From contig JAEHCQ010000003.1 in assembly GCA_020696385.1 (NCBI GenBank), forward strand, positions 64,001 to 128,000: a stretch of 64,000 nt of DNA, in the 5' to 3' direction. The notes under the pieces were generated by a model, which was not told the DNA's origin, ran no database searches, and worked only from the letters and a program-made list of their open reading frames with translations. A program made the position numbers and the translations under genes. The DNA comes from Methanobacteriota archaeon. GTDB lineage: Archaea; Thermoplasmatota; Thermoplasmata; SG8-5; JAGLSY01. This document shows, in pieces, positions 9,916 through 56,840 of the stretch (its first letter is position 1; each line of letters opens with the position of its first letter).

Positions 9916-10206
9916 TTATTTCTTGCCAGTCACCTTTATGATATGATAGCCGAACTGAGATCTAACAGGTCCAGACATCTCCCCTTTTTCAAGAGAGAAA
10001 GCAGCTTCCTCAAAGGGTTTGGCCATCTTGCCCTTTCCAAAGTACCCAAGATCTCCGCCCTTCGCTCTTGAAGGACAGCTTGACCACTTCTTCGCCTGGG
10101 TCTCGAAGCTCGCGCCTTCATTCAATTTCTTGATTATCTTCTCAGCCTCTGATTTCTTGCCAACAAGAATATGACTGGCTCTCACTTTCTTTACATCTTT
10201 AACCAT
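9916..10206 (-). CDS. ppiC: Parvulin-type peptidyl-prolyl isomerase (copy 3)
   Basis: VRASHILV, SCPS..KGGDLGYF, FEEAAF, SQFGYHII motifs. Confidence 0.9.
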   Translation of the reverse strand: MVKDVKKVRASHILVGKKSEAEKIIKKLNEGASFETQAKKWSSCPSRAKGGDLGYFGKGKMAKPFEEAAFSLEKGEMSGPVRSQFGYHIIKVTGKK

Positions 10207-10234
10207 ATGATCACTCTTTATCAAACAATGAACC

Positions 10235-10525
10235 TCAGCGTTTTTTCATCACCCTGATGATATGATAACCGAACTGCGTCCTCACCGGCCCGGATGTTTC
10301 ATCTTTCTCCAGAGAGAACGCAGCCTCCTCGAAGGGCTTTGCCATCTTCCCCCTTTCGAAATAGCCGAGGTCCCCTCCCCGCTTTTTGGAGGGACATTTT
10401 GAATAAGTCTTTGCCAGTGCAGTGAAGTTCGCTCCCTCTTCAAGCTTCTTCAATATCATATTTGCATCTCTTATAGTGCTAACGAGAATATGTCTGGCTC
10501 TGACCTTCTTGATCTCTTTGGCCAT
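10235..10525 (-). CDS. ppiC: Parvulin-type peptidyl-prolyl isomerase (copy 2)
   Basis: VRARHILV, KCPS..RGGDLGYF, TQFGYHII motifs. Confidence 0.9.
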   Translation of the reverse strand: MAKEIKKVRARHILVSTIRDANMILKKLEEGANFTALAKTYSKCPSKKRGGDLGYFERGKMAKPFEEAAFSLEKDETSGPVRTQFGYHIIRVMKKR

Positions 10526-35459: not shown

Positions 35460-38400
35460 ATGCATTCTGAAGATATGGACAAAAATGTTAACAATGATGA
35501 ATTTGATAGTGACATCTCAATTGATGAAATAGAAGTTATTGACGATACTGTTAAAATCGATACCATTGATAATGATAAAATCATTGATGATACAGGTAAA
35601 ACTGATATCATTGTCGATGATGAGATCATTGACGATGATGAGATCATTGACGATGATAAGATCATTGACGATGATAAGATCATTGATGATGATGATATCA
35701 TTGACGATGATAAGATCATTGACGATGATAAGATCATTGATGATGCGGAAACCATCGATGAAACAGAGATCATCAATGATAGCGAACCAGAGGCCGACAC
35801 AAAAAAGCCAACTACCAAAAGCAGTGGTCATAAAGCAAGCAAGAAGATCAACAAGAATGCATTGGCATCTATCTTCATCGTTATCATCATGATATCAGGA
35901 TCCTTCTATGCTGGCATACTTTACGGCATGGAGGATAAGGACTCGGATCAGGTAATTGATAAATATGATTTTGAGACTGATTCCTTTGATAACGGAGCAA
36001 CACTGATCCGGAAGGATGTGAAGATCCCTGAAGAGTCCGACGAGGTCTCGGAGATCACCATAACCAATGACACGATCTCCTTTGATTATTCCACAGATAC
36101 TGGGGCTCCAGATTACTCCGAAGGAGATATCGTCACAGGAACTGATGGCGATGGGTATCTCAGAAGGATCGTCAACATTACCAATGAAGACGGCAAGGTC
36201 GTGGCTGACACGGAGCCAGTGGGTCTTGACGAGGTGATCCTGAAAGGCGAGTTCAATGCCACTGATAGCCTTATGATAGACAATGGCACAAGAGGATGGG
36301 ATCTGACATCGATCAATCATCAAGAGATCAAGATAGATACACCAATTGCTAGCGGTGTCATTTCCACAAAATTCTATTATGAGGAATTTTCAGCCTATAC
36401 CTACGCCAGGTATGACTGGGGATTGAAGGAATTCACATACTCGCTCCATGAAAAAATGGTCTTTGAAATAGATTTTAATATTACATTGAAGGGCGAATGG
36501 AAATTCGACCCAAAGGATATGCCTGGATTATTCCCACAGCCCAAATTCAATTCATTCACCATCTGGCTTGGCGGAATACCTTTGGTCATGCAGCCGCAAT
36601 TCGAATGGGGCCCGATCATCGAATTGGCAGCAAATGGTCAATTCAATACAGGTGTGAAAGTCACTGTTGATAGAACATCTGGATTGTCATTCTATGATGG
36701 GAAATGGACGGATCTTGCTTCGGAGTCACGTACCGAGGAATGGAAGCCGATGACATTTGTCTTCAGCTTCACTGCAAAATTAGGGATCTATGCGGATTTC
36801 GAAATACTTCTATACGGTGCTGTTGGCCCTTTCATTAGAGGAGAAGTATATTTCTTATTTACCTGGACGCCCACCACGAATCCAACCTTGAATATCGATT
36901 TCGTGCTTGATATTTACGCAGGCCTGAGGTTCAAGATCGAATTCAATTACTGGAGCTGGTCCTTCTGGGGTGGATGGAAACAGAAAACAGGAACTCTGTT
37001 CAGTATTGAGCAATCTATGCACATATTCAATTTGAGAGTCGATGTATATGATAGTCCATACGAATGGCCTCCTGAACCTCCGAATAACCTAAGAGCGGAG
37101 GTTCCGGACCCAAGCCAAGAAGAGATCTGGGTCAGGTTCGATCCCATTGAAAACGAAAGATGGCCAGAGGCCTCGAGATGGAATATATACAGGAACGGAG
37201 AGCGATTGGTATTCCATACCAATCCCTATTCAGGGATCGAGGTAGATTATATCAAGCCAATGTTTTCAAGAAGTGCCAGGTATAATGAGGTCCTCAGTCA
37301 AAAGATGTTCCTTGAAGATGATCAGCTACCTGAACCTGGAGAGGAGACTTTCATAATCTGGGGTAGATCCATAGACCTGTTTGATGATGGTGCATCCGAG
37401 GTCATATTTATCGATAAGAATGTGGAACCTGGTGAGACGTACGTATACCACATAATTCCTTCAAGCTATCGTGGGGAAGGAAATATCAGTGATTTCGCTG
37501 TTATCAGATTCCCGACGAATCCATCCGTGCCAAGAAGCTTCACCGCTTCCCCATCATGGAACGAGACAGGTCCCGGAAATTTCTCACACAATATCACCTT
37601 GACATGGCAGGAGCCAGATGATGATGGTGAACTACCAATTGAGAATTACATGCTCTACAAGGGGACACAGCCAGATTTCATGAACACTCAAACCTACCAA
37701 ACCTTCACACTGGACAATGTAACCTCCTATGTGGATGAAGATGTGGTCAAAGGCCAGTCGTATTATTACATGATAATGGCCGGTAATGGTCATCTCTGGA
37801 GTTCTCGCACTACTGAGATTACAACAACCGCCTTCACACCACCCGGATCCATATCCAATCTGACCGCGATCTCAGGGGACGATTATGCGAACATGACCTG
37901 GGTAGCTCCAGATGATGACGGTGGATCACCGATCACAGGTTATCAGATACAAAGGAACCCGGAACCAAAAACCTTCCTTGTTGGCAATGTAACCAGTTTC
38001 AATGATACCAGCGTTACAAATGGAATTACCTACACATACTCCATCACTGCCGTTAATGAGGAGTTCGGCGCCACCACGCCAGTGGTCGTATCCTCCACAC
38101 CTCTAAGCACGCCTTCCGCACCATACGACCTGAATGCGGTCGAAGGAGTAGCGTCTGTTGATCTTTCATGGAGCCCTCCATCGGATATTGGAGGTTCGCC
38201 AGTGACCAATTACAACATATACAGAGGCACAACGCCAGGTAATGAAGTTTTCATTACCCAGATAGGTGACCTGACCAATTACAATGACCCGGGTCTTGTC
38301 AATGGCCAGGTATATTATTACAAGGTAAGTGCGGTCAATATCGTTGGTGAGAGCGGTCTTTCAACCGAGATTAGCTCAATTCCGAGAACAATTCCGGATG

Positions 38401-41400
38401 CGCCACAGACATTGACAGTCACTGCTGGCGATGGCTATGCGGATCTTTCATGGAGTGCGCCAGCATTCGATGGTGGTTCAGGTGTCACAGCATACAAGAT
38501 ATACAAGGGAACCGCACCAGGTGGTGAGGCATTCTTCGTCCAGATAGGCAATACACTGGGCTATAATGATACGGCCGTGGCCAATGGCCAGGTGTATTAT
38601 TACCAGGTTACCGCAGTTAATGTCGCTGGAGAAGGAGCATTATCAAATGAGGCCAGTGACACACCTGGACGAATACCAGATGCACCACAGACACTGACAG
38701 TCAATGCGGGAGATAGTTATGCGACACTTAATTGGCTGGCTCCAGCCTTTGATGGTGGCTTCCCGGTGACGAATTACAGAATATACAGGGGAACAAGCCC
38801 CGGTGGTGAGGCATTCCTTGTCATGATAGGTAATTCACTAACCTTCAATGATACTTCTGTGACCAATGGCCAGATATATTATTATCAGGTTGCCGCGGTC
38901 AATTCAGAGGGCGAGGGATCCATATCGAATGAGGCCAGCGATACACCGCTGGCCATCTCATCAGCCCCACTCACACCCTCCACCATATCAGGGGACCAGT
39001 ATGTGCAATTGAGCTGGACAATACCAGCGGACAATGGCGGCACCCCGGTGACGAATTACAGAATATACAGGGGAACAAGCCCTGGTGGAGAGACATTCCT
39101 CATCGAGATAGGCAACCAGCTTAGCTACAATGATACCGCCCTGGCAAATGGCCAGATATATTATTACAGGGTATCTGCAAAGAATGTAGTAGGTGAGGGG
39201 GCAATGTCATCCGAGGTCAGTGATACACCTCTGGCCATTCCAAACTCCCCTCAATCCCTTGTGGCAGTACCTGGCGATACCATAGTGGATCTCGGCTGGA
39301 ACGCACCAGCCATTGATGGCGGGACACCAGTGACCAATTACAATATCTACAGAGGAACAAGCCCAGGTACCGAGGTATTCCTTACCCAGATAGGTCCAGT
39401 GACCACATACAATGATAATACTCTGGTAAATGGTCAAATATACTATTATCAGGTAAGCGCGGTCAATGTGATCGGAGAGGGAACTCTATCCGGTGAGACA
39501 TCGGCGATCCCGGTCAATGTACCTGGAACCCCATTGAACCCAGTCACTACGGATGGTGATGAATATGTCGATATCACATGGGATGCACCATCAGATATTG
39601 GCGGAACTCCAGTTGTGAATTACCGCGTGTACAGGGGAACGAGCCCAGGCACGGAGGTATTCCTGACCGAGATAGGCAATATCACCAATTTCAATGACAC
39701 TGGCCTCGTCAATGGCCAGTCATATTATTATCAGATCAGCGCAGTCAATGCGGTCGGTGAAGGAGCCCTATCAACAGAGACCAACGGAACAGCCAGAGCA
39801 ACCCCAGATGCTCCAACCGGCCTGGTAGCGATTGCCAATAATGGAGGCATGAACCTCACCTGGCAGCCGCCGCTTATAGACGGCGGATTCCCGGTACTGG
39901 ATTATTCCGTATATCGAGGTACATCGCCAGGAAACGAAGTTTTCCTCGCTTCTGTAGGCGGTCCAACAACAAGCTTCGATGACAGTGGTTTGATAAATGG
40001 CCAGATATATTATTACAAGGTCACGGCGAGCAATATTGTCGGAGAAGGTGGCATGTCGAACGAGGCCAGTGATATTCCAAAGGCCGTACCTTCTGAGCCT
40101 TTGTCCCTGTCAACAACCTCTGGCGCGGGATATGTCGAGCTCAGCTGGCTGGCACCTTCAGATCCTGGAGGCGGAACGATATCCAATTACAACATATACA
40201 GAGGAATGGCAGAAGGCGGTGAGATGTTCCTCACCCAGATAGGAAATGTCACGACCTACAACAATACTGGATTGATCAATGGCGATACCTATCACTACAA
40301 GGTCACGGCAGCCAATGAGATAGGAGCAGGACCAATGTCCAATGGTGCCAATGACACACCACTGGCACCTCCATCCGAACCATATGGATTGGCAACTGAG
40401 AGCGGTGATGGATATGTGAACATCACCTGGCAAGTGCCATCTCTCGATGGAGGAACAACGATCACCGGCTACCGTATATATCGAGGTACTTCTCCAGGAG
40501 GAGCGGTATTCCTCACTCAGATAGGAAATATACTCTATCTGAATGACACTGGCCTGACCAATGGCGTCACCTATTATTACAATGTCAGCGCGGTCAATGT
40601 GATAGGCGAAGGCCAATTATCTTCAGAGACTGACGACACACCACATGACCTGCCTACTGCTCCACAGACATTGTCAGCAATTGCTGGCGATGAATATGTC
40701 AATCTAACATGGGCGGCTCCAGCTGACCTGGGTGGATTCCCAGTCATCAATTACAAGATATACAAGGGAACCAGCCCAGGTACCGAAGTGTTCCTTACAC
40801 AGATCGGCAACCTGACATATTTCACAGACACTGCGATAAATGGCTGGACCACTTACTATTACAAGGTAAGTGCAGTGACCGGCATTGGAGAAGGCCCATT
40901 GTCCAATGAGGCCAATGACTCGCCGAACTCGAAGCCAGATGCACCATCCAATCTGGCAGAGGTATCTGGTGTCACCTTTGTGAATCTGACATGGGATGCG
41001 CCTCTTGATGGTGGTTATCCCGTGACCAATTACAATATCTACAGAGGGAACACATCGGGAACTGAAACATACCTGGCCACGGTCGGAGTCCAGCTTTATT
41101 ACAATGATTCCGCACTTAGTCCGTGGGATGATTATTACTACACGGTAAGCGCGATAAACCTGCTTGGCGAGGGACTCAATTCCAGTGAGATATTTGGAGT
41201 TCCACAGTGCGTTCCATATGCACCCCAGAACCTCACGGCCTTCATCAATAATGTGGTGATCGACCTGACATGGGATGATCCTGCATTATTCACCCCCATA
41301 GATTCATATTACATATACAGGGGCAATGAGAGCGGCAATCTGACATATTATGATCAGGTGTTCTACCCAGATACAACGTACACCGATGAAAATCCGATAT

Positions 41401-42227
41401 TCAACCAGATACATTTCTATGCAATTGCAGGTGTGAATATCGCAGGTGTGGGGGCAATGTCCAATGAGGATAATATAACGATCTCACCACCGATTGGCCC
41501 CATCTCGATAGATGGAGATATTGACTTCGCCGCTCAGGCAGTGACCTATGGGTGGGCAGGAGCTGGTATTCCTCTCGATCCATATATCATCGAGAATGTG
41601 GATATCGATTCCACCACAGGTGATGGAATAACCATAATGAACACAAATGCGGACTTCATAATCAGATATGTCAATATATTTGGAGACCAGTCCTTCGGTG
41701 GAATTACCTTGATGAATGTCAATAATGGAGCAATAGAGAATACCACCATGGAGTTCAATTTTGGAGGGATCATACTTGACACGACCTCGAACATCAAGAT
41801 CCGTGACAGCAGGATCTCGAACAATACCATGGATGCCGTAATGATATTCGCATCCAGTAATATCGATTTCATAAAGAACAATATATCCAATTCTGCCACT
41901 GGGATCATGTTTGATACGTCAAATAATATCAATATCACATTCAATGACATATGCAATAATAGTAATGGGGTAATGATAGATATGAACTCCAATACCAATG
42001 TGATCATCTATAACAATTTCATCGGGAACACGGTGCAGGCAATGGATGAGGACATGAGTATGAGCAATATTTGGGATGATATGTCCTTCAGTGGAAATTA
42101 CTGGAGCGATTATACGGATGTGGATATCGCACCAATGGATGGTGTCTGGGACACCCCGTATTTCATATCTGGCGCGGCCTCCGCAATGGATACCTTCGCA
42201 TTGGTGGACCCTGTTATTCCGCCCTGA
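35460..42227 (+). CDS. Large type-II membrane surface protein with a fibronectin type III array and C-terminal NosD-like beta-helix
   Basis: Acidic repeats then a TM segment (ALASIFIVIIMISG); more than ten W..P..DGG.P.TNY.IYRGT...YYY.VSAVN.VGEG FN3 units; C-terminal NNF.GN..GNYWSDY. Confidence 0.9.
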   Translation: MHSEDMDKNVNNDEFDSDISIDEIEVIDDTVKIDTIDNDKIIDDTGKTDIIVDDEIIDDDEIIDDDKIIDDDKIIDDDDIIDDDKIIDDDKIIDDAETIDETEIINDSEPEADTKKPTTKSSGHKASKKINKNALASIFIVIIMISGSFYAGILYGMEDKDSDQVIDKYDFETDSFDNGATLIRKDVKIPEESDEVSEITITNDTISFDYSTDTGAPDYSEGDIVTGTDGDGYLRRIVNITNEDGKVVADTEPVGLDEVILKGEFNATDSLMIDNGTRGWDLTSINHQEIKIDTPIASGVISTKFYYEEFSAYTYARYDWGLKEFTYSLHEKMVFEIDFNITLKGEWKFDPKDMPGLFPQPKFNSFTIWLGGIPLVMQPQFEWGPIIELAANGQFNTGVKVTVDRTSGLSFYDGKWTDLASESRTEEWKPMTFVFSFTAKLGIYADFEILLYGAVGPFIRGEVYFLFTWTPTTNPTLNIDFVLDIYAGLRFKIEFNYWSWSFWGGWKQKTGTLFSIEQSMHIFNLRVDVYDSPYEWPPEPPNNLRAEVPDPSQEEIWVRFDPIENERWPEASRWNIYRNGERLVFHTNPYSGIEVDYIKPMFSRSARYNEVLSQKMFLEDDQLPEPGEETFIIWGRSIDLFDDGASEVIFIDKNVEPGETYVYHIIPSSYRGEGNISDFAVIRFPTNPSVPRSFTASPSWNETGPGNFSHNITLTWQEPDDDGELPIENYMLYKGTQPDFMNTQTYQTFTLDNVTSYVDEDVVKGQSYYYMIMAGNGHLWSSRTTEITTTAFTPPGSISNLTAISGDDYANMTWVAPDDDGGSPITGYQIQRNPEPKTFLVGNVTSFNDTSVTNGITYTYSITAVNEEFGATTPVVVSSTPLSTPSAPYDLNAVEGVASVDLSWSPPSDIGGSPVTNYNIYRGTTPGNEVFITQIGDLTNYNDPGLVNGQVYYYKVSAVNIVGESGLSTEISSIPRTIPDAPQTLTVTAGDGYADLSWSAPAFDGGSGVTAYKIYKGTAPGGEAFFVQIGNTLGYNDTAVANGQVYYYQVTAVNVAGEGALSNEASDTPGRIPDAPQTLTVNAGDSYATLNWLAPAFDGGFPVTNYRIYRGTSPGGEAFLVMIGNSLTFNDTSVTNGQIYYYQVAAVNSEGEGSISNEASDTPLAISSAPLTPSTISGDQYVQLSWTIPADNGGTPVTNYRIYRGTSPGGETFLIEIGNQLSYNDTALANGQIYYYRVSAKNVVGEGAMSSEVSDTPLAIPNSPQSLVAVPGDTIVDLGWNAPAIDGGTPVTNYNIYRGTSPGTEVFLTQIGPVTTYNDNTLVNGQIYYYQVSAVNVIGEGTLSGETSAIPVNVPGTPLNPVTTDGDEYVDITWDAPSDIGGTPVVNYRVYRGTSPGTEVFLTEIGNITNFNDTGLVNGQSYYYQISAVNAVGEGALSTETNGTARATPDAPTGLVAIANNGGMNLTWQPPLIDGGFPVLDYSVYRGTSPGNEVFLASVGGPTTSFDDSGLINGQIYYYKVTASNIVGEGGMSNEASDIPKAVPSEPLSLSTTSGAGYVELSWLAPSDPGGGTISNYNIYRGMAEGGEMFLTQIGNVTTYNNTGLINGDTYHYKVTAANEIGAGPMSNGANDTPLAPPSEPYGLATESGDGYVNITWQVPSLDGGTTITGYRIYRGTSPGGAVFLTQIGNILYLNDTGLTNGVTYYYNVSAVNVIGEGQLSSETDDTPHDLPTAPQTLSAIAGDEYVNLTWAAPADLGGFPVINYKIYKGTSPGTEVFLTQIGNLTYFTDTAINGWTTYYYKVSAVTGIGEGPLSNEANDSPNSKPDAPSNLAEVSGVTFVNLTWDAPLDGGYPVTNYNIYRGNTSGTETYLATVGVQLYYNDSALSPWDDYYYTVSAINLLGEGLNSSEIFGVPQCVPYAPQNLTAFINNVVIDLTWDDPALFTPIDSYYIYRGNESGNLTYYDQVFYPDTTYTDENPIFNQIHFYAIAGVNIAGVGAMSNEDNITISPPIGPISIDGDIDFAAQAVTYGWAGAGIPLDPYIIENVDIDSTTGDGITIMNTNADFIIRYVNIFGDQSFGGITLMNVNNGAIENTTMEFNFGGIILDTTSNIKIRDSRISNNTMDAVMIFASSNIDFIKNNISNSATGIMFDTSNNINITFNDICNNSNGVMIDMNSNTNVIIYNNFIGNTVQAMDEDMSMSNIWDDMSFSGNYWSDYTDVDIAPMDGVWDTPYFISGAASAMDTFALVDPVIPP
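35604..35745 (+). repeat. 18-bp coding tandem repeat (IIDDD[K/E/D]) of about 8 units
   Basis: ATCATTGACGATGATAAG-type units. Confidence 0.85.
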
Positions 42228-43448: not shown

Positions 43449-44234
43449 ATGAACATTATTGTATGTATCAAGCAAGTACCGGACACCACGGACGTTAAGA
43501 TCGATCCGAAGACAGGAACACTCATCAGGGATGGAGTGCCAAGCATTGTGAACCCAGATGACAAACATGCAGTTGAGGAGGCTCTTCGCCTGAAGGAGAA
43601 GTTCGGTGGAAAGGTCACCGCTCTCTGCATGGGACCGCCACAAGCTGACGACGCATTGAGAGAGGTTTCCGCAATGGGTGTGGATGATCTCATTCTGCTA
43701 AGTGACAGGGCCTTCGCAGGTGCTGACACATGGGCAACATCCTATGCACTGGGTATGGCGATAGGGAAGATCGAGTACGATCTGGTCATATGCGGAAGGG
43801 AAGCCATAGACGGCGATACCGCACAGATCGGCCCCCAGCTTGCAGGATGTCTCGATATCCCCCAGATAACCTATGTCAAGAATGTGGAGATGGGCGATGG
43901 CAAGATCCTTTGCGAGCGCGCCCTTGAGGACGGTTACGAAAAGATCGAGGCAAGCCTTCCAGCACTTATCACTGTCATATCTGATCTGAACAAGCCCAGA
44001 TACCCATCAGTGGGTGGCATAGTTGAAGCTTACAGAGAGAAAGAAGTAAAGGTATGGAATGCCGAGTTCATCGGCGCAGACCAGGAACTTCTTGGTCTGA
44101 AGGGATCTCCAACCGAAGTGAGAAAAACTTTCGCGCCAGAGCCAAAGGGAGATGGTGAGATACTTCAGGGAAGCACGGACGAAATGGCCAAACAACTGGT
44201 CACTAAACTTGTAGATAAGAATATTTTGAGGTGA
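43449..44234 (+). CDS. etfB: Electron transfer flavoprotein beta subunit
   Basis: CIKQVPDT, SDRAFAGADTWAT, GREAIDGDTAQIGP, GLKGSPT motifs. Confidence 0.95.
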   Translation: MNIIVCIKQVPDTTDVKIDPKTGTLIRDGVPSIVNPDDKHAVEEALRLKEKFGGKVTALCMGPPQADDALREVSAMGVDDLILLSDRAFAGADTWATSYALGMAIGKIEYDLVICGREAIDGDTAQIGPQLAGCLDIPQITYVKNVEMGDGKILCERALEDGYEKIEASLPALITVISDLNKPRYPSVGGIVEAYREKEVKVWNAEFIGADQELLGLKGSPTEVRKTFAPEPKGDGEILQGSTDEMAKQLVTKLVDKNILR

Positions 44235-44239
44235 TATTT

Positions 44240-45484
44240 GTGGCTGTTATTAAAATTGATGAAGATGCATGTATCGGATGCGGCATATGTGTGAACAAAT
44301 GCCCAGATGCTTATGACCTGAATGATGACCAGAAAGCTATCGTGAAGAACCACAATGCCCCATGCGCACAGATCGGAGCAGATGATTGTCCGGTCGGCGC
44401 TATCGAGATCACTGGCGAGATCGTGCCAAGCGAAGCACCTGCACCAGTAGCTGCTGCCGCTCCAGTGGCAGCACAGCCAACAGGAGATTACAAAGGCGTG
44501 ATGGTCTTTGCAGAGCAGAGAGGCGGAGAGATCAAGAAGGTGACGATAGAGCTTCTTGGACGCGGCCGTGGACTGGCTGATGACCTGGGCGTGGAACTAT
44601 CCGCAGCTCTAATGGGTCATAATGTGGAAGGACTGGCCAAGGATCTTATCGCAAGAGGCGCTGATAAAGTTTACGTTATCAACGATGCAAAACTTGAGAA
44701 TTACAATACTGGTGGCTATACAAAGGCAATGAGCAAGCTCATAAACACAGAGAAGCCCGAGATCGTCCTTTACGGTGCGACACATATCGGCAGGGATCTG
44801 GCTCCAAGGATCGCCAGGGAATTGCATACGGGACTTACAGCTGACTGTACAGAGCTTACCATAGATCTGGAGCAGAGATTATTGCTTCAGACAAGACCAG
44901 CATTCGGCGGAAATATTATGGCCACCATCATGTGCCCGAACCACAGACCACAGATGTCAACCGTTCGCCCAGGCATAATGAAGGAAATGGATGCAGACCC
45001 GGCAAAGACTGGCCAGGTCGTCAACTTTGATGCTGGATTAATAGATGCGGACATAACCACAAGGATCATCGAGATCATCAAGGAGAAGAAGTCAGTAGCT
45101 GGCCTTGAGGATGCGAAGTTCATAGTATCTGGTGGAAGGGGTGTCGGCGGTGCAGATGGTTTCAAGACCATTCAGGCACTGGCAGATGTTCTGGGAGCAG
45201 AAGTGGGCGGATCCAGGGTGGCAGTCGAGAAAGGCTGGATATCCAAGGATCAACAAGTGGGCCAGACAGGAAAAAGTGTCAGGCCAGCTTTGTACATCGC
45301 CTGCGGAATATCAGGTTCGATCCAGCACCGTGCTGGAATGCAGAACGCGGACTTCATCGTGGCAATCAATAAGGACCCGAATGCCCAGATATTCACTGTG
45401 GCTGACATTGGTATTGTTGGCGACCTGTTCGATGTACTGCCAAAGTTGATAAATGAGCTTAAGGCAGCTAATATCGGTGCATAG
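44240..45484 (+). CDS. etfA: Electron transfer flavoprotein alpha subunit with N-terminal [4Fe-4S] ferredoxin domain
   Basis: CIGCGICVNKCP..C..CPVGAI, then an Ala/Pro linker, then GLTADCT, RPAFGGN, QVGQTGK, CGISGSIQH, AINKD. Confidence 0.93.
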   Translation: MAVIKIDEDACIGCGICVNKCPDAYDLNDDQKAIVKNHNAPCAQIGADDCPVGAIEITGEIVPSEAPAPVAAAAPVAAQPTGDYKGVMVFAEQRGGEIKKVTIELLGRGRGLADDLGVELSAALMGHNVEGLAKDLIARGADKVYVINDAKLENYNTGGYTKAMSKLINTEKPEIVLYGATHIGRDLAPRIARELHTGLTADCTELTIDLEQRLLLQTRPAFGGNIMATIMCPNHRPQMSTVRPGIMKEMDADPAKTGQVVNFDAGLIDADITTRIIEIIKEKKSVAGLEDAKFIVSGGRGVGGADGFKTIQALADVLGAEVGGSRVAVEKGWISKDQQVGQTGKSVRPALYIACGISGSIQHRAGMQNADFIVAINKDPNAQIFTVADIGIVGDLFDVLPKLINELKAANIGA

Positions 45485-46085: not shown

Positions 46086-46232
46086 TATTTTATCTCCTAT
46101 TTCACTCATGCCAAAGGATAATCCATCAGCATATGAGTGATGGTTCATTCACAATACTGTATATAATGATATGCACAGATACACAGTGAAATACGGTCAT
46201 AATAAATTGAAATATCTATAATATAAAAGTGG

Positions 46233-46260
46233 GGGCTCTCCGTGATTTTTCGGAGAGCCC
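46233..46260 (-). terminator. GC-rich hairpin plus U-tract after pnp
   Basis: GGGCTCTCCG/CGGAGAGCCC stem, followed on the minus strand by CCACTTTT. Confidence 0.65.
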
Positions 46261-46295: not shown

Positions 46296-48554
46296 TTATC
46301 TGCGATCCCTGTTGTCGCGTCCACCGCTTCTGCGGTCCCTACCGCCATCGCGACCGCCTCTTGATGGTGGCCTTCTCTCACGCTTTGGGGGCTCTACATA
46401 TCCCTCTGGCTGTGGTATGAGGGATTTCATTGAAACCTCCACCTTGCCGCGCTCGATCTTGATGATCCTGACCTTCACCTTGTCGCCTTCCTTCAGTTTG
46501 TCAGAGACATTCTCTGTTCTTTCCCAGGCGATCTCCGATACATGCAGAAGTCCATCTGTGTTTCCAAAGAGATTGACAAAGGCTCCAAAGTTCATGATCT
46601 TGACAACTGTGGCCTCCTCAAAGACATCGCCGACTTCGGCCTCTCTGAGCAGTTCCTTTATTGCCGCCTCGGCCTTCTCGGCCTTCTCGGCATTGTCAGA
46701 TGTTATGAGAACCAATCCACTGTCCTCCAGATCGATCTGGACATCGTATTCCTCGGTCAAGGCCCTTATGACCTTTCCACCAGGTCCGATGACCTCTCTG
46801 ATCTTCTCCGGGTCGATCATGAATGATGTTATCCTTGGTGCATATGGTGACATCTGCTCCCTTGTTTTTGGTATGCACTTCTCGATGACATCGATGATCT
46901 CATTTATGGCCTTCCTCATTGGAGGCATTGTGGCCTTGACCATTTCCTTGGATATTCCTCTGGTTTTGGTATCCATCTGAACTGCTGTAAGACCATCGCG
47001 GGTTCCAGTGAATTTGAAATCCATTCCACCGTCACCGTCTTCAAGATCCTGAAGATCGGTAAGTATTTTCCAAGCCTTGCCGTCAGATGCACAACCCATA
47101 GCAATCCCTGCTACTGGTTTCTTGATCGGAACACCAGCATCCATCAGAGCAAGTGTGGAACCACATGTGGCCCCCATTGATGATGAACCATTGGAGCTCA
47201 TAACTTCGCTCACGACCCTAACTGTGTAAGGGAATTCCTCACCCTCTGGGATCATTGGCAGAAGTCCTTTCTCTGCAAGGGCACCGTGACCGATATCCCT
47301 TCTGCTGGCTCCACGCAATGGCTTGACCTCTCCCACACTAAATGGTGGGAAATTGTAGTGGTGGAAGTACTTCATAGTTCCATCACTTTCCATGCTCTCG
47401 ATGGACAGGTCATCACCAGGTGATCCAAGTGTGACAATTGACAAAACCTGAGTTTCTCCCCTTGAGAATAGACCAGTACCGTGTGTTCTTGGCAGAAGAC
47501 CGACATCAGCTTTTAGTTCTCTGATCTCGTCCAGCTTACGGCCATCGACCCTGAGGTCTTTGTCCAGTACAGCCCTTGTGACCTGCTGTTCGATGAATGG
47601 GAAGAAGAATGCCTTCAACAATCCTTTCAGATATTCCGCGGTCGCCTCTTCATCCCTTTCTGGTGTGGCCAGCTTTTTCTTGAAATCATTGACCAATATC
47701 TCTTCCAATCCCTTCAGGATATCCTTTCTCTCGCCTTTTGTTCCTTTCGGGGTATTGAACAGGTATTTGTCAAGATGTGGTATCGCGGCTTTCTTCAACT
47801 GCTCGATCACTGGAGCATCAGATTCCGCTGTGCCTTCTTTCATGATTATCTCATCAGGTCCGGCCTTTGGCTTTCCAACTTCCTTTCTGATACCATCAAT
47901 AAACTTGGCCAGAGGTCCTAAGGCCTCCATTCCTGCCAAGATTCCGTCAGTTATCTGAGCATCAGTCAATTCATTAGAATCCGAGTCAATATTTGTTATC
48001 CTCTCGCCGTCACCCATAAGGACCATGTTCAGGTCAGAGTATTCCAGCTCATCGACTGTTGGGTTGATGACGAACTCGCCATTAACCAGACCGACCCTGA
48101 CACCGCCTATTGGCCCGTCGAAGGGTACCTTGGATATGTGAAGCGCAGTGCAAGCTGCTATCATCGCGGCTATGTCTGGCTTATTTGCGTGATCCATACA
48201 AAGTGGTGTGCATATGACCTGTATATCATTCCTCATCAACTGCGGGAACAGAGGCCTCAGACCCCTATCGATCTTTCTGCTTGTCAATACAGCTTCATTG
48301 GAAGGCCTGCCTTCCCTCTTCAGGAACCTTGGTCCCTTGATCTTTCCTGCAGCGTAATACTTCTCTTCATAATCCACCATAAGCGGGAAGAAGTCCATAC
48401 CTGGCCTTGCTCTTGTGGCCATGCTGACCGTCGCTAATACGACCGTCTCTCCCATCTGCACAGTGACCGAGGCATCTGCCTGGTTTGCTATTCTTCCAGT
48501 TTCCACTATTAATTTCGTTCCATCTATTTCTGTTTCGAACTTTTTTATTTCCAT
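46296..48554 (-). CDS. pnp: Polyribonucleotide nucleotidyltransferase (bacterial-type PNPase with two RNase PH domains, KH and S1)
   Basis: ETGRIANQA, DFFPLMVDYEEKYYAAGKI, REGRP, RVDGR, HGTGLFSRGETQ, HHYNFPPFSVGE, SNGSSSM, GMDFK; KH IREVIGPGGKVI; S1 FGAFV..DGLLHVSEI. Confidence 0.95.
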   Translation of the reverse strand: MEIKKFETEIDGTKLIVETGRIANQADASVTVQMGETVVLATVSMATRARPGMDFFPLMVDYEEKYYAAGKIKGPRFLKREGRPSNEAVLTSRKIDRGLRPLFPQLMRNDIQVICTPLCMDHANKPDIAAMIAACTALHISKVPFDGPIGGVRVGLVNGEFVINPTVDELEYSDLNMVLMGDGERITNIDSDSNELTDAQITDGILAGMEALGPLAKFIDGIRKEVGKPKAGPDEIIMKEGTAESDAPVIEQLKKAAIPHLDKYLFNTPKGTKGERKDILKGLEEILVNDFKKKLATPERDEEATAEYLKGLLKAFFFPFIEQQVTRAVLDKDLRVDGRKLDEIRELKADVGLLPRTHGTGLFSRGETQVLSIVTLGSPGDDLSIESMESDGTMKYFHHYNFPPFSVGEVKPLRGASRRDIGHGALAEKGLLPMIPEGEEFPYTVRVVSEVMSSNGSSSMGATCGSTLALMDAGVPIKKPVAGIAMGCASDGKAWKILTDLQDLEDGDGGMDFKFTGTRDGLTAVQMDTKTRGISKEMVKATMPPMRKAINEIIDVIEKCIPKTREQMSPYAPRITSFMIDPEKIREVIGPGGKVIRALTEEYDVQIDLEDSGLVLITSDNAEKAEKAEAAIKELLREAEVGDVFEEATVVKIMNFGAFVNLFGNTDGLLHVSEIAWERTENVSDKLKEGDKVKVRIIKIERGKVEVSMKSLIPQPEGYVEPPKRERRPPSRGGRDGGRDRRSGGRDNRDRR

Positions 48555-48557
48555 TTT

Positions 48558-48750
48558 TCCAACTCCTTATCTACCAACTCGAAAGTAAATTATAAAATCA
48601 AATTAAACCAATAATCCATCAGCCAGCAATCAAACAAGCGTCCAAAAGTCCAACATCCAACAATCCATCAGTCCAACTAACCAACAATCCAACATTCTCG
48701 AATCCATTTTTCCATCATATTATTTTTCTATTCCAACATGTTTCCAATAT
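48558..48750 (-). promoter_or_regulatory. Long pnp 5' leader with periodic GTTGGA-like repeats
   Basis: TCCAAC-like hexamers on the plus strand, ~8-nt period at 48641-48693; TATA-like CTTATAT (minus) at ~48820. Confidence 0.5.
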
Positions 48751-48955
48751 CATTACAAACATTTTGGTTCTTTCATCTATATTACTTCTTATAGTTAAGA
48801 TAGGCGAGATACTTAATGCATATAAGGGTTTCTATTAATATATTCATATTCAATAAATATCATTGTTTTCCTAAGCTGAATCTGAGCAAATTTAATTATA
48901 GTTAGCTTATCCAAACTCCCAAATACTTGAAATATACTTACGAGTCAGTGATATC

Positions 48956-50059
48956 ATGGTAGATAAGAGAGTGGAAAACCTAGCCAAACTGCTTGTTAAT
49001 TATTCGATCGATGTTAAGAAAGGACAGGAAATTATTATTTCCAGCCCTCCTGACGGGGCACCACTGGCACTTCAAGTTTACAGGGAAGTGCTCAATGCAG
49101 GAGCCCACCCCTTGATGATGCCTTCTCTAGACGGCGCGGCCGAGATCTTTTACAAAGAAGCTTCAGATGAACAGTTGAAATTCGTATCACCCTACAGGAA
49201 GTTCCTGTTGAAGAATGTAGATGGCTATGTTGGAATATCGGCAGCCGTCAATACAAGAGAAATGTCCGGAGTGGACCCGAAGAAGATGGGAATGGTCTCT
49301 GGAGCCAATGCCGAGATATCCAAGATCGTCGGCGAGCGCAGTGCTACTGGCGAGTTCAAATGGGTCGGCCTCATATATCCCACACAGGCACAGGCACAGG
49401 AGGCCAGCATGTCACTTACAGAATATCAGGATTTCGTTTATTCCGCTTGTCTGGCCGACAAGCGGGACCCCATCGCGGAATGGAAAAAGGTCAAGAAGGA
49501 GCAGGACAAGATGGTCAAGGTCCTTAACAAGATAGAAAAACTTCATTTCATCGGCGAGGACACTGACCTTATCATGTCTGTCAAGGGCCGTCTATGGGAG
49601 AACTGCTGTGGCGAGAAGAACATGCCGGATGGAGAAGTGTTCACTGGGCCAGTTGAAAACTCAGTTGAAGGAAAGATAAGATTCACTTTCCCAGGTATCT
49701 ACATGGGCAAGGAGGTCGAGGACATCTACCTTGAGTTCAAGAAAGGTAAGATAGTCAAGGCAACAGCAGAAAAGGGAGAAGAACTTCTGAAGAGCCTTAT
49801 CGCGGTCGATGAGGGTTCAAAGCGTCTGGGAGAGGTTGCCATCGGAACCAACCACGGTATCAAGAAGTTCACCAATTCCATTCTATTCGATGAGAAGCTG
49901 GGTGGAACCATCCACATGGCTATTGGCCGCGGTTTCCCAGAGACCAAGTCGAAAAACGAATCTGGCGTGCACTGGGACATGATCAAGGACATGAAGAAAG
50001 GCGGCGAAATATACGGAGATGCTGAATTGATCTATAAGAATGGTAAATGGCTCAAGTGA
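48956..50059 (+). CDS. Aminopeptidase, M29 (thermophilic metalloprotease / AmpS) family
   Basis: NMPDGEVFTGP, LGEVAIGTN, LFDEKLGGTIHMAIG, SGVHWDMI motifs. Confidence 0.92.
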   Translation: MVDKRVENLAKLLVNYSIDVKKGQEIIISSPPDGAPLALQVYREVLNAGAHPLMMPSLDGAAEIFYKEASDEQLKFVSPYRKFLLKNVDGYVGISAAVNTREMSGVDPKKMGMVSGANAEISKIVGERSATGEFKWVGLIYPTQAQAQEASMSLTEYQDFVYSACLADKRDPIAEWKKVKKEQDKMVKVLNKIEKLHFIGEDTDLIMSVKGRLWENCCGEKNMPDGEVFTGPVENSVEGKIRFTFPGIYMGKEVEDIYLEFKKGKIVKATAEKGEELLKSLIAVDEGSKRLGEVAIGTNHGIKKFTNSILFDEKLGGTIHMAIGRGFPETKSKNESGVHWDMIKDMKKGGEIYGDAELIYKNGKWLK

Positions 50060-52319: not shown

Positions 52320-52847
52320 ATGCGCGATAGAAGATTCATAGCAGTACACAGGGGCGGACCGCTCACAATAGAAAACCACCGCGCACTAATGAACTGGGCG
52401 ATAAAATGCTCGGAGCACGTATTACATCTTATTCCAGATGATATCGACAATAGACTGGCCCACGCTCTCCAGACTGCGAAAGAATGGAAAGAAGGAAAGG
52501 TCAAGACAGGCGAGTGCATGAAAGCGTCAGTCGCCGCCCACGCGACAGCCAGAGAATTATCAGACCCAGTTAAGATAGCAGTTGCGAGATCAATCGGCCA
52601 GTGTGTGGCAACAGCCCACATGGCGGATCATTCAATGGGAGCCGCACTCTACGCCCTCAAGGCTGTGAAGCTGGCTGGAGGGGATGTGGAGGGGGAGAGG
52701 GAGTGGCAGGAGGGGGAAGTGGGGAAGTTGCCGGAGGAGTTGGTGGGGGTTGTGGAGGGGGCGATTAGGGAGAAGAGAGAGGGGGGTTGGGGTTTTAGGG
52801 GCAGGTCCAGTCAATTATTCCTCAGAAGAGGTATGTACCTGGTGTGA
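52320..52847 (+). CDS. Imm5-like putative immunity protein (3' end G-biased, possibly extended)
   Basis: HRALMNWA..C.EHVL, AAHA.AR, ARSIGQCVATAHMADH, ER.WQ motifs. Confidence 0.75.
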   Translation: MRDRRFIAVHRGGPLTIENHRALMNWAIKCSEHVLHLIPDDIDNRLAHALQTAKEWKEGKVKTGECMKASVAAHATARELSDPVKIAVARSIGQCVATAHMADHSMGAALYALKAVKLAGGDVEGEREWQEGEVGKLPEELVGVVEGAIREKREGGWGFRGRSSQLFLRRGMYLV

Positions 52848-52867
52848 TGGTGAGAAACAATTTGAAA

Positions 52868-54658
52868 TCATCTATAATTATCTGGATTTAGTAAAATGTG
52901 TGATATTAAACTTCTTGCATTCTCAGATAATTCATGAAAGTAAATCTGTTCAGCAATGTCCTTCGCTTTATTTAAGTAACCAATCGCCTCTTTTTTATTC
53001 CCATCATGGTATTGTATATAACCCAGGTGGAAATAGCAAAGGGCTTCAAGTTGCAAATTGTCTGAATATGTTTCTAATGATTCGTTAAAATGCACAGCAG
53101 CACTTTCATATTTATCTGATTTAAAATAAGCTATCCCAATATTGTATAGATTATCTGCAATCCCTTTTTTATTACCTATAGAACGATTTAATTCAAGAGA
53201 ATCATTTAAATAATTAAATGCTACCTGAAAATCAAGTTTTTTAATGTATACTCCACCTATCGAACCTAATGTATCAGCTATTCCCTCTTGAAATTTGATA
53301 TTTTTAAGTATCTCTAGGGCCTTGTTTAAATATTCAAGAGCTTGGGGCAATTGGTCAAAATCATTATAAAGTTCTCCAATCTGAAATAAAGATAGGGCTT
53401 CCTCTTTTACTAAACCGAGTTGTGTATATATTTCTAGACACTTAGAATAATAGCTATATGCTTTATCAAATTCATAATTATATCTAAATAATACCCCTAT
53501 ATTCCCATATACACTTGCCACTCCTCTCGCGCTGTCTATCTTTTCAAAAATTTCCAGTGCCTTTTTATAAGATTCTATTGCCCCATCAAAGTTATAGGCA
53601 TTCATATGTATATTTCCAATATTGTTATGGATTGTTGCTATGTTTACATCTTCATTAATTTCTTCTGCAATTTCTAATGCTTGCTGAAAATAAGATAATG
53701 ATTCTTTAGGATTGCCAGTTATTCTGTATATGTTACCAATATTATTTAAGTTTGAAAGAACACCATGCTTATTTCCTTCTGCTGTGTTAATTTTCAAAGC
53801 CTTCTTTAAATTATCTAATCCTGCTTCATAATTACCTAAAAAAGAATTAGTGATTCCTATTCCACCATAGCCGATAGCCTTTGAGTTTACCTTAACAGAG
53901 CCCTCAGCCTTGTCCGCAACTTTAATTATTGTATTATAGATTCCTTTTGCTTCTTCGTACTTTGCGATGATTGAGTAACAATTAGCTAGAGGTATTAATG
54001 TAGATAATTTATCAGATGGAGATAATGTGTACAATCTAAGTATGTTATTAAGTTCCTCAACTCCTTTTTCATATTCTTCACCAAGGCAATAAATTAAGGC
54101 CTGAATTATGTTTTCTCGTACAGTCTTATCATCTGACTTTGGTAATTCACCTTGCCAATATAATGCCCCTTTATTGTCTGTGCCTAATTGAGTCTGAAAG
54201 ATGTAATAATAACCATTAAAGGCAATATCATCTAAATCGTCTATATTGAGTTTGTCAAACCCAATTGTATTTTCTCCTTGTTCTCTCCATTTAGGGTTTT
54301 TCACAGACAATATTTCTCTGATATATTGCTGTGCAAAGGCATAATAAAAGTCGAACTTGCCCGATCTCTTAACACCTAAAATGATAATTATCGGAGAACG
54401 AGAATCTTCATAATAATGTAAATGCTTAGTTTCTATGGATTTTTTTGCTTTTTTATCTCGTGCGATGTCCTTGTTAGTACCTTTTACTTGAACCCATAGT
54501 ACTTTATTAGTTACTTTTCCATCATCTACAATTTCAATTGTTAAATCAATCCCAACATCAGGTTCTATATCTCTTACAATCCAACTTGGCGGTAATAAAC
54601 TTCTAAAAGCTAAACGAGATTCATATTCAAGTTCCTGTTCTTTTGTTCTCTGCATCAC
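52868..54658 (-). CDS. DUF4365 (PD-(D/E)xK-type nuclease-like) domain fused to a long TPR array; low GC
   Basis: DVGIDLTIE...WVQVKGT motif; about nine TPR repeats (LNNIGNIY...ALEI). Confidence 0.8.
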   Translation of the reverse strand: MMQRTKEQELEYESRLAFRSLLPPSWIVRDIEPDVGIDLTIEIVDDGKVTNKVLWVQVKGTNKDIARDKKAKKSIETKHLHYYEDSRSPIIIILGVKRSGKFDFYYAFAQQYIREILSVKNPKWREQGENTIGFDKLNIDDLDDIAFNGYYYIFQTQLGTDNKGALYWQGELPKSDDKTVRENIIQALIYCLGEEYEKGVEELNNILRLYTLSPSDKLSTLIPLANCYSIIAKYEEAKGIYNTIIKVADKAEGSVKVNSKAIGYGGIGITNSFLGNYEAGLDNLKKALKINTAEGNKHGVLSNLNNIGNIYRITGNPKESLSYFQQALEIAEEINEDVNIATIHNNIGNIHMNAYNFDGAIESYKKALEIFEKIDSARGVASVYGNIGVLFRYNYEFDKAYSYYSKCLEIYTQLGLVKEEALSLFQIGELYNDFDQLPQALEYLNKALEILKNIKFQEGIADTLGSIGGVYIKKLDFQVAFNYLNDSLELNRSIGNKKGIADNLYNIGIAYFKSDKYESAAVHFNESLETYSDNLQLEALCYFHLGYIQYHDGNKKEAIGYLNKAKDIAEQIYFHELSENARSLISHILLNPDNYR

Positions 54659-54724
54659 ACTTCTCTCGTTAGTGAATAGGATACACTCCTTAAATCCATT
54701 TCCATTATTCCTTCTTAATATATT

Positions 54725-55405
54725 TCAAGAAATACCATACATCTCAATTCCTTTTCCTTCAGGATCAAGCTCATCGATATATTTTTTCATTGCACTGATT
54801 TGATGTCCAGCTGGTTGCCAATTCTTAATCATATTTTTTGCTATTAATAGAGAATAACTAGTCATTTTTAATTCTTCTTTTGCATTTTCTTGTGTGAAAT
54901 CATCTGGCCCAATGACATTACCATATTCAATATCTATATACATAGCCACTTCCTTTTTTGATTGCATATTCCCATACCGATCTAAAATATGATCTGGAAT
55001 AGGGCCTTCAGATAATTTATTTACAAAATCAAGAGCTTCTTCTTCATTATCTGGCCCATCTGCGCCAAATTCTCCTTTTTTGATTGCCTCACTGACTTTT
55101 GAAACAGTATACCACATAAGCGCCTGTAAATATTGTTTTTTCTTATGATTTACTGTAATCGTGTTTCGCTTCTTTTTATTTGATTGAACAAGATGAGTTA
55201 GTTCTAATTGTAAGGCATTTGATATTGTATGATAATAAAATGCTTTACCAATTTCTTCTTCAGCCAGAACGCATAGAGCATAAATATGACCATAATTTCT
55301 ATCATTGAGAAACAAGCATAAAGCATCAAGATAATATTCTTCACCATTCTTTAATGATGAGTCTCTAGCCTCATTTATGAGATTAAGATGCTGTTGATTA
55401 ACCAT
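54725..55405 (-). CDS. AbiV-family (HEPN-like) abortive infection protein; low GC
   Basis: LAEEEIGKA, HKKKQ, K..AMYID pattern typical of the AbiV family. Confidence 0.7.
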   Translation of the reverse strand: MVNQQHLNLINEARDSSLKNGEEYYLDALCLFLNDRNYGHIYALCVLAEEEIGKAFYYHTISNALQLELTHLVQSNKKKRNTITVNHKKKQYLQALMWYTVSKVSEAIKKGEFGADGPDNEEEALDFVNKLSEGPIPDHILDRYGNMQSKKEVAMYIDIEYGNVIGPDDFTQENAKEELKMTSYSLLIAKNMIKNWQPAGHQISAMKKYIDELDPEGKGIEMYGIS

Positions 55406-55422
55406 ATTTCTTCCTTCTCACT

Positions 55423-55486
55423 CCCCAATCCCCTTCCCAGCATTTAAACCTGTGCGCGCGCTTGCACTTTTTAGCATGCTGGAAAT
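55423..55486 (-). repeat. 64-bp direct repeat, copy A (contains TTTAAA promoter-like core)
   Basis: 61/64 identical to 56594-56657. Confidence 0.9.
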
Positions 55487-55496
55487 GAGTATACTC

Positions 55497-56570
55497 TCAA
55501 CCAATTGGCTGTTTAGGTGGAGGTAAATTTTGTTTTGTTTTCTTTGATTTAAAGAAAATATTTACAAACATACCTACTGAGAAGATCACAATTATTATTG
55601 ATGTAGCAGATAAGAATGGGAGTCCACCCTCATCATCAGGATAATATCCTTCAGGAATTGAAATACTAGCATCCAAATTGCTCAATATTGCTACCTCTGC
55701 TGATGTCGAAATTAATTCACCATTTTCTCTGTCATCTGCTCTTGTACCAAAGATAGGTTCCAACTCAGATATTGGGATCTTTCCTGTGATAGCATTTGAA
55801 TCCTCACCTATCCAATCGATATCCGAATAATAACCTGCATAAACGTAGAATTCAACTATTTTTACATCTATTGTTTGAAGAACATATTTCATATTAGACA
55901 GTGATATGTCTAAATCATCACCTGTTATTGCTGAATTGGAAATTTGCAGATTATTAGAATAATCCGTATTTAAATTGTAGTTATCACTTGAAGAAGAACT
56001 TAAGGCAGAGCCAGCATAATTGATTTTTCCATCAACAGACGAAGATGTTGTCACTTCTAAATCAAACTGAAAACGTAAATCAGCATCGATATAATATTTC
56101 TGGAGTATGATATCGATTTCTTTGTGCCATGTCATAACGGTTATTTGGCTAGTTTTTGCAGGTGATGTTTTATCACCAATTGGCACCGTCATTGAAATTG
56201 AAGTCCTGGGAAATACAATCGATTTCTCATATAATTGATACCCGAAAACTGTACAATCTGCCTGACCATTAAATTCATACCAGATTTCACCAGGCATCCC
56301 TCTAGCTTCTATAGAGATCTCAATTGTTTCTCCAGGGGTAATTGTTGTTGGATAGGACATTTCTACTTCAATTGGGCATTTGATTCCACCACCTATGTAA
56401 AAATCTGCACTCACAGACATTGGACCTACAGACTCAGAAAAATCTGCAGATATTTCACCTGAATGTCCAAAATCAACTATCTGGGTTTTTGAAGTAGCCG
56501 AGGTATTTTGCGGTAATAAAATACACATAAATAATAGCAAGCATACAATCAATGACACATATTTTTTCAT
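55497..56570 (-). CDS. Secreted, membrane-anchored hypothetical protein with a PGF/PEF-CTERM-like tail; low GC
   Basis: MKKYVSLIVCLLL signal peptide; GLPFL then TM then KSKK tail. Confidence 0.75.
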   Translation of the reverse strand: MKKYVSLIVCLLLFMCILLPQNTSATSKTQIVDFGHSGEISADFSESVGPMSVSADFYIGGGIKCPIEVEMSYPTTITPGETIEISIEARGMPGEIWYEFNGQADCTVFGYQLYEKSIVFPRTSISMTVPIGDKTSPAKTSQITVMTWHKEIDIILQKYYIDADLRFQFDLEVTTSSSVDGKINYAGSALSSSSSDNYNLNTDYSNNLQISNSAITGDDLDISLSNMKYVLQTIDVKIVEFYVYAGYYSDIDWIGEDSNAITGKIPISELEPIFGTRADDRENGELISTSAEVAILSNLDASISIPEGYYPDDEGGLPFLSATSIIIVIFSVGMFVNIFFKSKKTKQNLPPPKQPIG

Positions 56571-56593
56571 CTTCCACATTCCCTTACCCCACC

Positions 56594-56657
56594 CCCCAAT
56601 CCCCTTTCCACCATTTAAACCTGTGCGCGAGCTTGCACTTTTTAGCATGCTGGAAAT
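56594..56657 (-). repeat. 64-bp direct repeat, copy B
   Basis: 61/64 identical to 55423-55486. Confidence 0.9.
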
Positions 56658-56692
56658 AGATATCTGGGTGTGCCAGCGTATCGAGATAAAGG

Positions 56693-56840
56693 CCAAAGGA
56701 TGAAAACTACCCCGCCCTGCGCTGAGCTTGGACGGGGCTTGAGAATACCAGTTTGTATTTGTCAACCACTGGGTCATCGAATATAAAACCCCGCCCTGAT
56801 GAATATTCTATGAATCATCCAGACGGGGCATGCTCGAATA
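56693..56840. mobile_element. Small non-autonomous two-hairpin element, copy 3 (inverted relative to copies 1 and 2)
   Basis: AACTACCCCGCCC...GGACGGGGCTTG and AAACCCCGCCC...AGACGGGGCATG; reverse-complement match to 680-819. Confidence 0.65.

Follow-up and report, generated by a model that had tools for sequence, protein, structure and literature searches.

Bacterial PNPases and the archaeal exosome are the closest described counterparts of the locus reported here. According to the available sections of PMC5416783 and PMC7144898, the exosome (Rrp41/Rrp42 with Rrp4/Csl4) shares with PNPase a homologous PH ring, phosphorolysis and RNA tailing; it differs in being built from separate subunits and in carrying a G[S/T]R phosphate motif where PNPase has S[S/T]S. 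In halophiles and some methanogens a bacterial-type 3'-5' exonuclease, RNase R, substitutes for a lost exosome, and the exosome or RNase R are the only archaeal options given in the available text of PMC7144898. PNPase was stated to be absent from archaea in papers of 2017 and 2022 (PMC5416783, PMC8836086) and is treated as bacterial in PMC11641769 and PMC11201974, as far as the accessible parts of these four papers go. The phrase 'all domains of life' in the accessible text of PMC13572404 refers to homologues, and 'archaeal PNPase', in the literature passages available, can mean the exosome.

The accessible part of PMC7414124 discusses the exosome of Undinarchaeota and leaves PNPase unmentioned. 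We found no report of a true PNPase in archaea in the literature, of which large annotation tables, bioRxiv supplements and subscription reviews might hold a mention; supplements of PMC9287336 (five files), PMC9585477 (one file) and PMC7414124 (three small files) gave no matches for an archaeal PNPase. In GenBank, many proteins of the clade described below are already labelled as PNPases of Thermoplasmata.

Here we describe a full-length PNPase gene, pnp, on the reverse strand (46296..48554) of a 64,000-nucleotide stretch of archaeal DNA, the whole of which is referred to as the window. Our preferred reading, to which we give a probability of roughly 0.8, is that of an intact, long-resident PNPase, likely a homotrimeric phosphorolytic RNase and RNA tailer working parallel to a complete exosome, and likely acquired from Patescibacteria in a single ancient transfer. 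As an enzyme, this PNPase is a textbook member of its family; what is new is the archaeal host, the presence alongside the exosome and the series of exosome losses among relatives. Also new is a conserved, predicted 5' leader of ~240 nt with 15 UUGGA/AUGGA repeats.

The pnp gene and its product

The 752-aa ORF (P0001) has no internal stops and scores 817 bits, exceeding the cut-offs of both TIGR03591 (525) and PRK11824 (471). Two other assignments were ruled out. The Rrp41 and Rrp42 profiles score 103 and 41, below their cut-offs of 319 and 280, and the true Rrp41 and Rrp42 lie on another contig, C22; the actinobacterial GPSI/PNPase profile (TIGR02696) gives 547 against 1107.

Pfam places two RNase_PH domains, a KH domain (residues 576-634) and an S1 domain (639-708) on the protein, while the alpha-domain family PF03726 has no match at E<=1e-3. 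An AlphaFold monomer model, built on a 52-row alignment (pLDDT 87.9, pTM 0.81), supplies a three-helix domain at residues 244-332, between the two PH domains. The PH1-alpha-PH2-KH-S1 order given by a sequence-only reading of this DNA is thus found in a single chain, with the helical domain drawn from the model and not from PF03726. The best PDB matches of the model are all PNPases (5yjj, 8zaw, 7ogk and 4am3 among the solved ones), to which identity by structure alignment is ~40%. On the reverse strand of the window, the first PH domain (approximately residues 4-226, delimited by Pfam, model and invariant columns) occupies 47877..48545, the helical linker 47559..47825, the second, catalytic PH domain 46875..47558, the KH domain 46650..46835 and the S1 domain 46431..46640, the last two placed by Pfam and model alike. 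A tail rich in R, G and D (residues ~721-752, 46299..46394) is predicted to be disordered, with pLDDT at ~50 or lower; it had been called RGG-rich, which describes its composition well enough, though it holds only one strict RGG and three GGR.

The available text of PMC5416783 names, in E. coli PNPase, the RNA-binding arginines R93, R97, R100, R398 and R399, and H403, and named metal ligands are D486/D492 in E. coli and Q546/D548 in M. smegmatis, together with K494 (available parts of PMC5416783, PMC8284320). In P0001, R93, R97 and R100 of the first PH domain and R418, R419 and H423 of the second are invariant across the 52 aligned sequences, as are the phosphate-binding S[S/T]S motif (SNGSSS, S457-S459) and D506, D512, Q526 and D528 with K514. 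The motifs RBRI, RBRII and PBR were found in 121, 121 and 120 of the 121 closest sequences. One departure lies in the metal-binding loop D506-K514 (47013..47039, reverse strand), where GGMDFK replaces the usual GDMDFK, as it does in 114 of the 121; the replaced Asp is a non-ligand that sits between metal ligands. This exchange of a conserved loop Asp for Gly may count against a working enzyme, though it is common to 29 of the 30 closest PNPases from the bacterial class discussed below.

Against two orthologues from the same genus, the dN/dS of pnp is 0.051 (G002) and 0.064 (G003), which shows purifying selection. The claim that this ORF is a PNPase of 752 aa is borne out by both profile cut-offs, by domains and residues, and by structural matches; judged from its sequence and predicted fold, P0001 is confirmed as a bacterial-type PNPase encoded by an intact, strongly conserved gene. 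With bacterial Pnp it shares the five-domain chain, the fold and the residues that bind RNA, phosphate and metal, and it differs in its archaeal host, an archaeal-type promoter candidate, the GGMDFK loop and the complete exosome alongside. By analogy with known members of the family, three subunits would form the PH ring, KH and S1 would capture single-stranded RNA and feed it to PH2, and PH2, with Mg2+ and phosphate, would release NDPs or, in reverse, add tails.

Host and gene neighbourhood

Completeness of the source genome is 94.5% and contamination 0.39%; the contig that contains the window is 262 kb long. Our marker scan of this contig covered nine proteins, eight of them chosen from its 82 ORFs, and found eS8, Cbf5, archaeal CMP kinase, prefoldin beta and archaeal HPT, all above cut-off. 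The nearest named records to the pnp protein come from Thermoplasmata or Thermoplasmatota archaea, and at least 120 homologues range from 56 to 96% in identity, clear of the bacterial sequences, which reach ~54% at most.

Downstream of pnp lies a syntenic etfA-like gene (44231..45484, forward strand), and upstream a divergent gene (48956..50059, forward strand) with no NCBIfam match at 1e-10, presumably aminopeptidase-like. In all four other genomes of the family, pnp sits beside the etfA flank, the divergent gene or both, so that the gene order is retained in sister genomes. Compared with 179 genes of similar length, pnp ranks at the 48th percentile in GC3 (0.501) and at the 82nd in codon-usage distance, in agreement with the earlier impression that its base composition resembles that of the flanking genes.

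Several other features of the window and genome deserve mention. A glutamine-tRNA ligase (10983-12683, reverse strand) scores 698 against the TIGR00440 cut-off of 426. Since archaea are usually taken to lack GlnRS, this may be another case of an imported information-processing gene. The pnp contig also encodes a RhlE/CshA-like DEAD-box helicase (L329:36-1598, forward strand), below all cut-offs, which may be a PNPase partner. Two ORFs are very large: one of 4024 aa (14898-26972, reverse strand) and one of 2255 aa (35460-42227, forward strand), the latter by eye resembling a surface protein, with numerous fibronectin-III-like repeats. A low-GC stretch at ~52800-56800 (32-39%), which holds a TPR-rich protein, may be a recent insertion. 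Two small parvulin-type peptidyl-prolyl isomerases stand in tandem at 9916-10525 (reverse strand), and elsewhere in the genome (C46:40524-40723) there is an intergenic tandem repeat with a unit of ~62 bp.

Signals around pnp

All signals described here are read on the reverse strand. The proposed Shine-Dalgarno sequence holds: AAGGAG lies at 48563..48568, 8 nt before the ATG, and is alike in G002 and in the related locus L024. The archaeal TATA-like element proposed upstream fared less well. A proximal candidate, TTTTATAA (48590..48597), exists in this genome and is not conserved in G002, while a distal one, GAAACCCTTATATG (48819..48832), which resembles the BRE/TATA consensus of archaea, is kept in all four available family leaders and is therefore the better candidate. 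The pnp promoter thus likely lies ~265 nt upstream, as far as sequence conservation can tell, and not at the proximal element. Matches to sigma-70 promoters were near chance (11 vs 7.4±2.9). Beyond the stop codon, a 10-bp GC-rich hairpin with a short U-tract (46223..46260) may be a terminator or a 3' protective stem. The hairpin of the proposed terminator stands, its stem (46233-46260) being conserved in G002 and mostly so in G003; the U-tract that follows, CCACTTTT, is weak. Terminator-like sites numbered 7 in our scan against 2.9±1.7 in shuffles.

If GAAACCCTTATATG is the promoter, a leader of ~240 nt is implied (48555..48795), and we regard it as a candidate regulatory element. It is the genome's densest 200-nt window for (T/A)TGG(A/T) on the sense strand, with 15 copies; in the remaining three leaders of the family the counts are 17, 16 and 10. 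For each of the four, none of 2000 dinucleotide shuffles matched the motif count, a result to be read with the motif having been picked after sequence inspection and the four leaders coming from kin genomes. The last 170 nt of the leader are 91-92% identical to those of L024, where identity at four-fold coding sites is 36%, and two control spacers gave 69-78% aligned identity; the G002 leader aligns poorly and retains the repeats. The RNA is not significantly structured (fold z -1.37), and reading the leader revealed no conserved upstream ORF. Among the rows listed, other archaeal pnp leaders have 0-7 copies, the repeat-rich leader being confined to the source genome's family among the leaders compared. 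A metagenome scan for pnp returned two loci only, at 64-65% identity, and added no leaders from this family. With a motif chosen post hoc, kin genomes and an RNA of no unusual structure, a function for the leader is offered as a lead only; we speculate that a protein may bind the repeats and thereby set the level of PNPase, which might in this way regulate itself. Separately, families f50 (L153, L156, L159) and f2 (L109, L117) share GC-rich pnp-leader blocks that look by eye like conserved structured RNAs and are unlike the repeat leader of the source genome.

Origin of the archaeal PNPases

Archaeal PNPases form one clade with support 100 in each of three trees (182-row FastTree, 60-row LG+G4 and a quick 42-row mixture-model tree), and in each this clade lies, with support 98-99, inside that of the Uhrbacteria class. 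By this name we mean the class of Patescibacteria that holds a Ca. Uhrbacteria genome, presumably ABY1. The 103 non-duplicate proteins among the best 120 matches all join the archaeal clade, and the nearest named bacterial representatives are Uhrbacteria and Patescibacteria. PNPases of the Uhrbacteria class reach 54% identity, and 29 of the 30 closest carry the motif D[LI]QD[LMVF]EDxxGGMDFK, shared by the archaeal clade as DLQDLEDxxGGMDFK; their upstream sequences differ, and a long stem stands between them and the archaeal clade.

In AU tests, monophyly of Patescibacteria without the archaea was rejected (p=0.0005), and holding the Uhrbacteria class together without the archaea was not (p=0.156), so that the archaea may be either nested in this class or its sister. 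The bacterial rows were picked by similarity (the best 30 of 81 genomes of the class, the best 30 of 101 of the phylum, and 17 named and 68 unnamed others). On this sampling the trees place the donor side in Patescibacteria, and one old transfer out of this phylum is the likely source of the archaeal enzyme. Under LG+G4, monophyly was rejected for the PNPases of the source order (p=0.030) and of the source class (p=0.011), while family labels change 11 times on the PNPase tree, the minimum possible. Because the tree departs from taxonomy, some transfer of PNPase between archaea is likely as well. Codon usage, synteny, dN/dS and the trees together support the earlier suggestion that the gene was acquired horizontally and has since ameliorated.

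Distribution in archaea

Rather than being peculiar to this genome, pnp is an old, clade-wide trait. It occurs, full-length or split between contigs, in 17 of the 21 genomes of the source order. In the class sample it was found in 25 of 401 genomes, one of these with a fragment (160 aa, G152) and the rest limited to three families of the source order and three other families; in the phylum sample it was found in 32 of 401, of which 31 lie outside the source class and 19 belong to the 20 genomes of family f50. One family of the source order (f3, two genomes, 91-92% complete) gave no PNPase match. The sequence-only reading would have yielded to evidence that PNPase is already documented as widespread in this lineage: the genome data do show it so, and we found no paper that documents it.

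In G015 (L017 / L115), pnp has a single in-frame TAG near residue 505, which could reflect an error of sequencing, a defective gene or a codon that is read through. A cluster of the same PNPase clade (P0110, with P0289-P0291) bears the names 'Candidatus Undinarchaeales' and 'Methanopyri', one of them on 15 contigs, and a spread of archaeal PNPase beyond Thermoplasmatota is possible.

The exosome in the source genome and its relatives

The source genome carries an intact psmA-SBDS-rrp4-rrp41-rrp42-rpl37ae operon on contig C22, where the psmA, SBDS, rrp4 and rpl37ae labels are our own assignments from sequence. Its Rrp41 is above cut-off and keeps the RR, GTR and two Asp motifs, and Csl4 is present. 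We did not find RNase R in this 94.5% complete genome, nor did a beta-CASP search of it yield a clear candidate for RNase J; that search returned a 408-aa member and a 638-aa protein which, by its length, we take to be aCPSF1-like. It had been proposed that PNPase replaces or supplements the exosome. With the exosome operon and Csl4 intact, the gene content supports supplementation here; replacement appears in other classes of the phylum.

Within the source class, 23 of the 24 PNPase-positive genomes have Rrp41 above cut-off with intact motifs, and the exception is 61% complete. Outside it, Rrp41 was matched in 12 of 31 PNPase-positive genomes, above cut-off in nine. Rrp41 was missing from 19 of 32 PNPase-positive as against 9 of 369 PNPase-negative genomes of the phylum sample and, at completeness of at least 90%, from 9 of 12 as against 2 of 254, though these counts overstate the association of PNPase with exosome loss, kin genomes not being independent. 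In 16 of 18 Rrp41-negative genomes examined, SBDS and rpl37ae are 98-179 bp apart, a clean deletion of rrp4-rrp41-rrp42; in the other two, neither gene lies within 1.5 kb, and G477 has no SBDS match. Three further genomes (G540, G537 and G472; loci L238, L239, L240 and L334) retain an rrp41 without catalytic aspartates, and G540 and G472 have, in addition, a break in the exosome operon behind rrp4.

A psmA+SBDS tree requires four changes to account for the loss or decay of the exosome. Well-supported branches force at least three of these, and within family f66 the genomes with a degenerate Rrp41 branch earlier than those with a deletion. Exosome loss has thus occurred three or more times in another class-level group, with one family carrying a catalytically dead Rrp41 on its earlier branches. 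PNPase appears, from gene content, to replace the exosome in other classes of the phylum. There are exceptions to this pairing: G549 (83% complete) has a deleted exosome, yet no PNPase match, and no Rrp41 match was obtained in two high-quality genomes that are PNPase-negative.

The catalytically inactive core of the eukaryotic exosome relies on added nucleases. The rrp41 genes of G540, G537 and G472 recall that core, although theirs may simply be decaying. Compared with the archaea that use RNase R, the stand-in in Thermoplasmatota would be a phosphorolytic homologue of the exosome, PNPase, and coexisting, dead and deleted states of the exosome are all visible.

Competing explanations

Contamination, misassembly or a bacterial contig can be dismissed with near certainty as the source of pnp. 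Its closest neighbours, an acyl-CoA dehydrogenase and ETF, are admittedly not domain-specific. However, the flanks recur in four other assemblies, which excludes misassembly at the pnp borders; eS8, Cbf5, prefoldin and other archaeal proteins on the contig exclude a bacterial one; and the 120 homologues are set apart in identity from bacteria. Synteny, archaeal markers, typical composition and low dN/dS lead us to reject a recent arrival too. We judge it unlikely, with less assurance, that a single entry close to the base of Thermoplasmatota was followed by strictly vertical descent, with many losses and no transfer between archaea. One archaeal clade on a long stem and the minimal number of family changes agree with such a history, but it is at odds with the rejected monophyly of order and class, with the ~92% of sampled phylum genomes that have no PNPase match, and with the cluster within the clade named Undinarchaeales. 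Our preferred reading, one old transfer from Patescibacteria, allows for some later exchange among archaea.

That PNPase has already replaced the exosome in the source genome is very improbable: the apparent cases in other classes lend the notion some appeal, but it is contradicted at the gene level by the presence of rrp4, rrp41, rrp42 and csl4 and by the motifs kept in Rrp41. A further alternative is a PNPase retained for a task outside the reach of the exosome, such as RNA chaperoning, removal of oxidised RNA, tailing or supply of NDPs, with exosome loss only partly its effect. Bacterial PNPases do have non-degradative roles, and pure redundancy would not favour the two intact systems seen in nearly all PNPase-positive genomes of the source class; against this stand the decay or deletion of the exosome almost only where PNPase occurs and the invariance of all degradative residues, and we hold this account to be doubtful. 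We consider it probable that the source genome makes a working PNPase that acts in parallel with its exosome. The loss series suggests broad overlap between the two, enough perhaps for PNPase to render the exosome dispensable, while the retention of both machines in the source class leaves room for a distinct PNPase job. A bolder proposal, to which we give somewhat less than an even chance, is that in Thermoplasmatota an imported CPR enzyme has taken over RNA decay completely, several times independently, through PNPase beside an active exosome (as here), beside a dead one and alone. It would parallel the inactivation of the eukaryotic core, and in the source family the repeat leader would control PNPase through an archaeal RNA-binding protein or PNPase itself.

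Significance

A conserved clade of archaeal PNPases overturns the stated absence of this enzyme from archaea, and offers a likely example of the passage of an information-processing enzyme from CPR bacteria to archaea. Since relatives range from having both machines, through a dead exosome, to PNPase on its own, the interchangeability of PNPase and exosome becomes directly testable.
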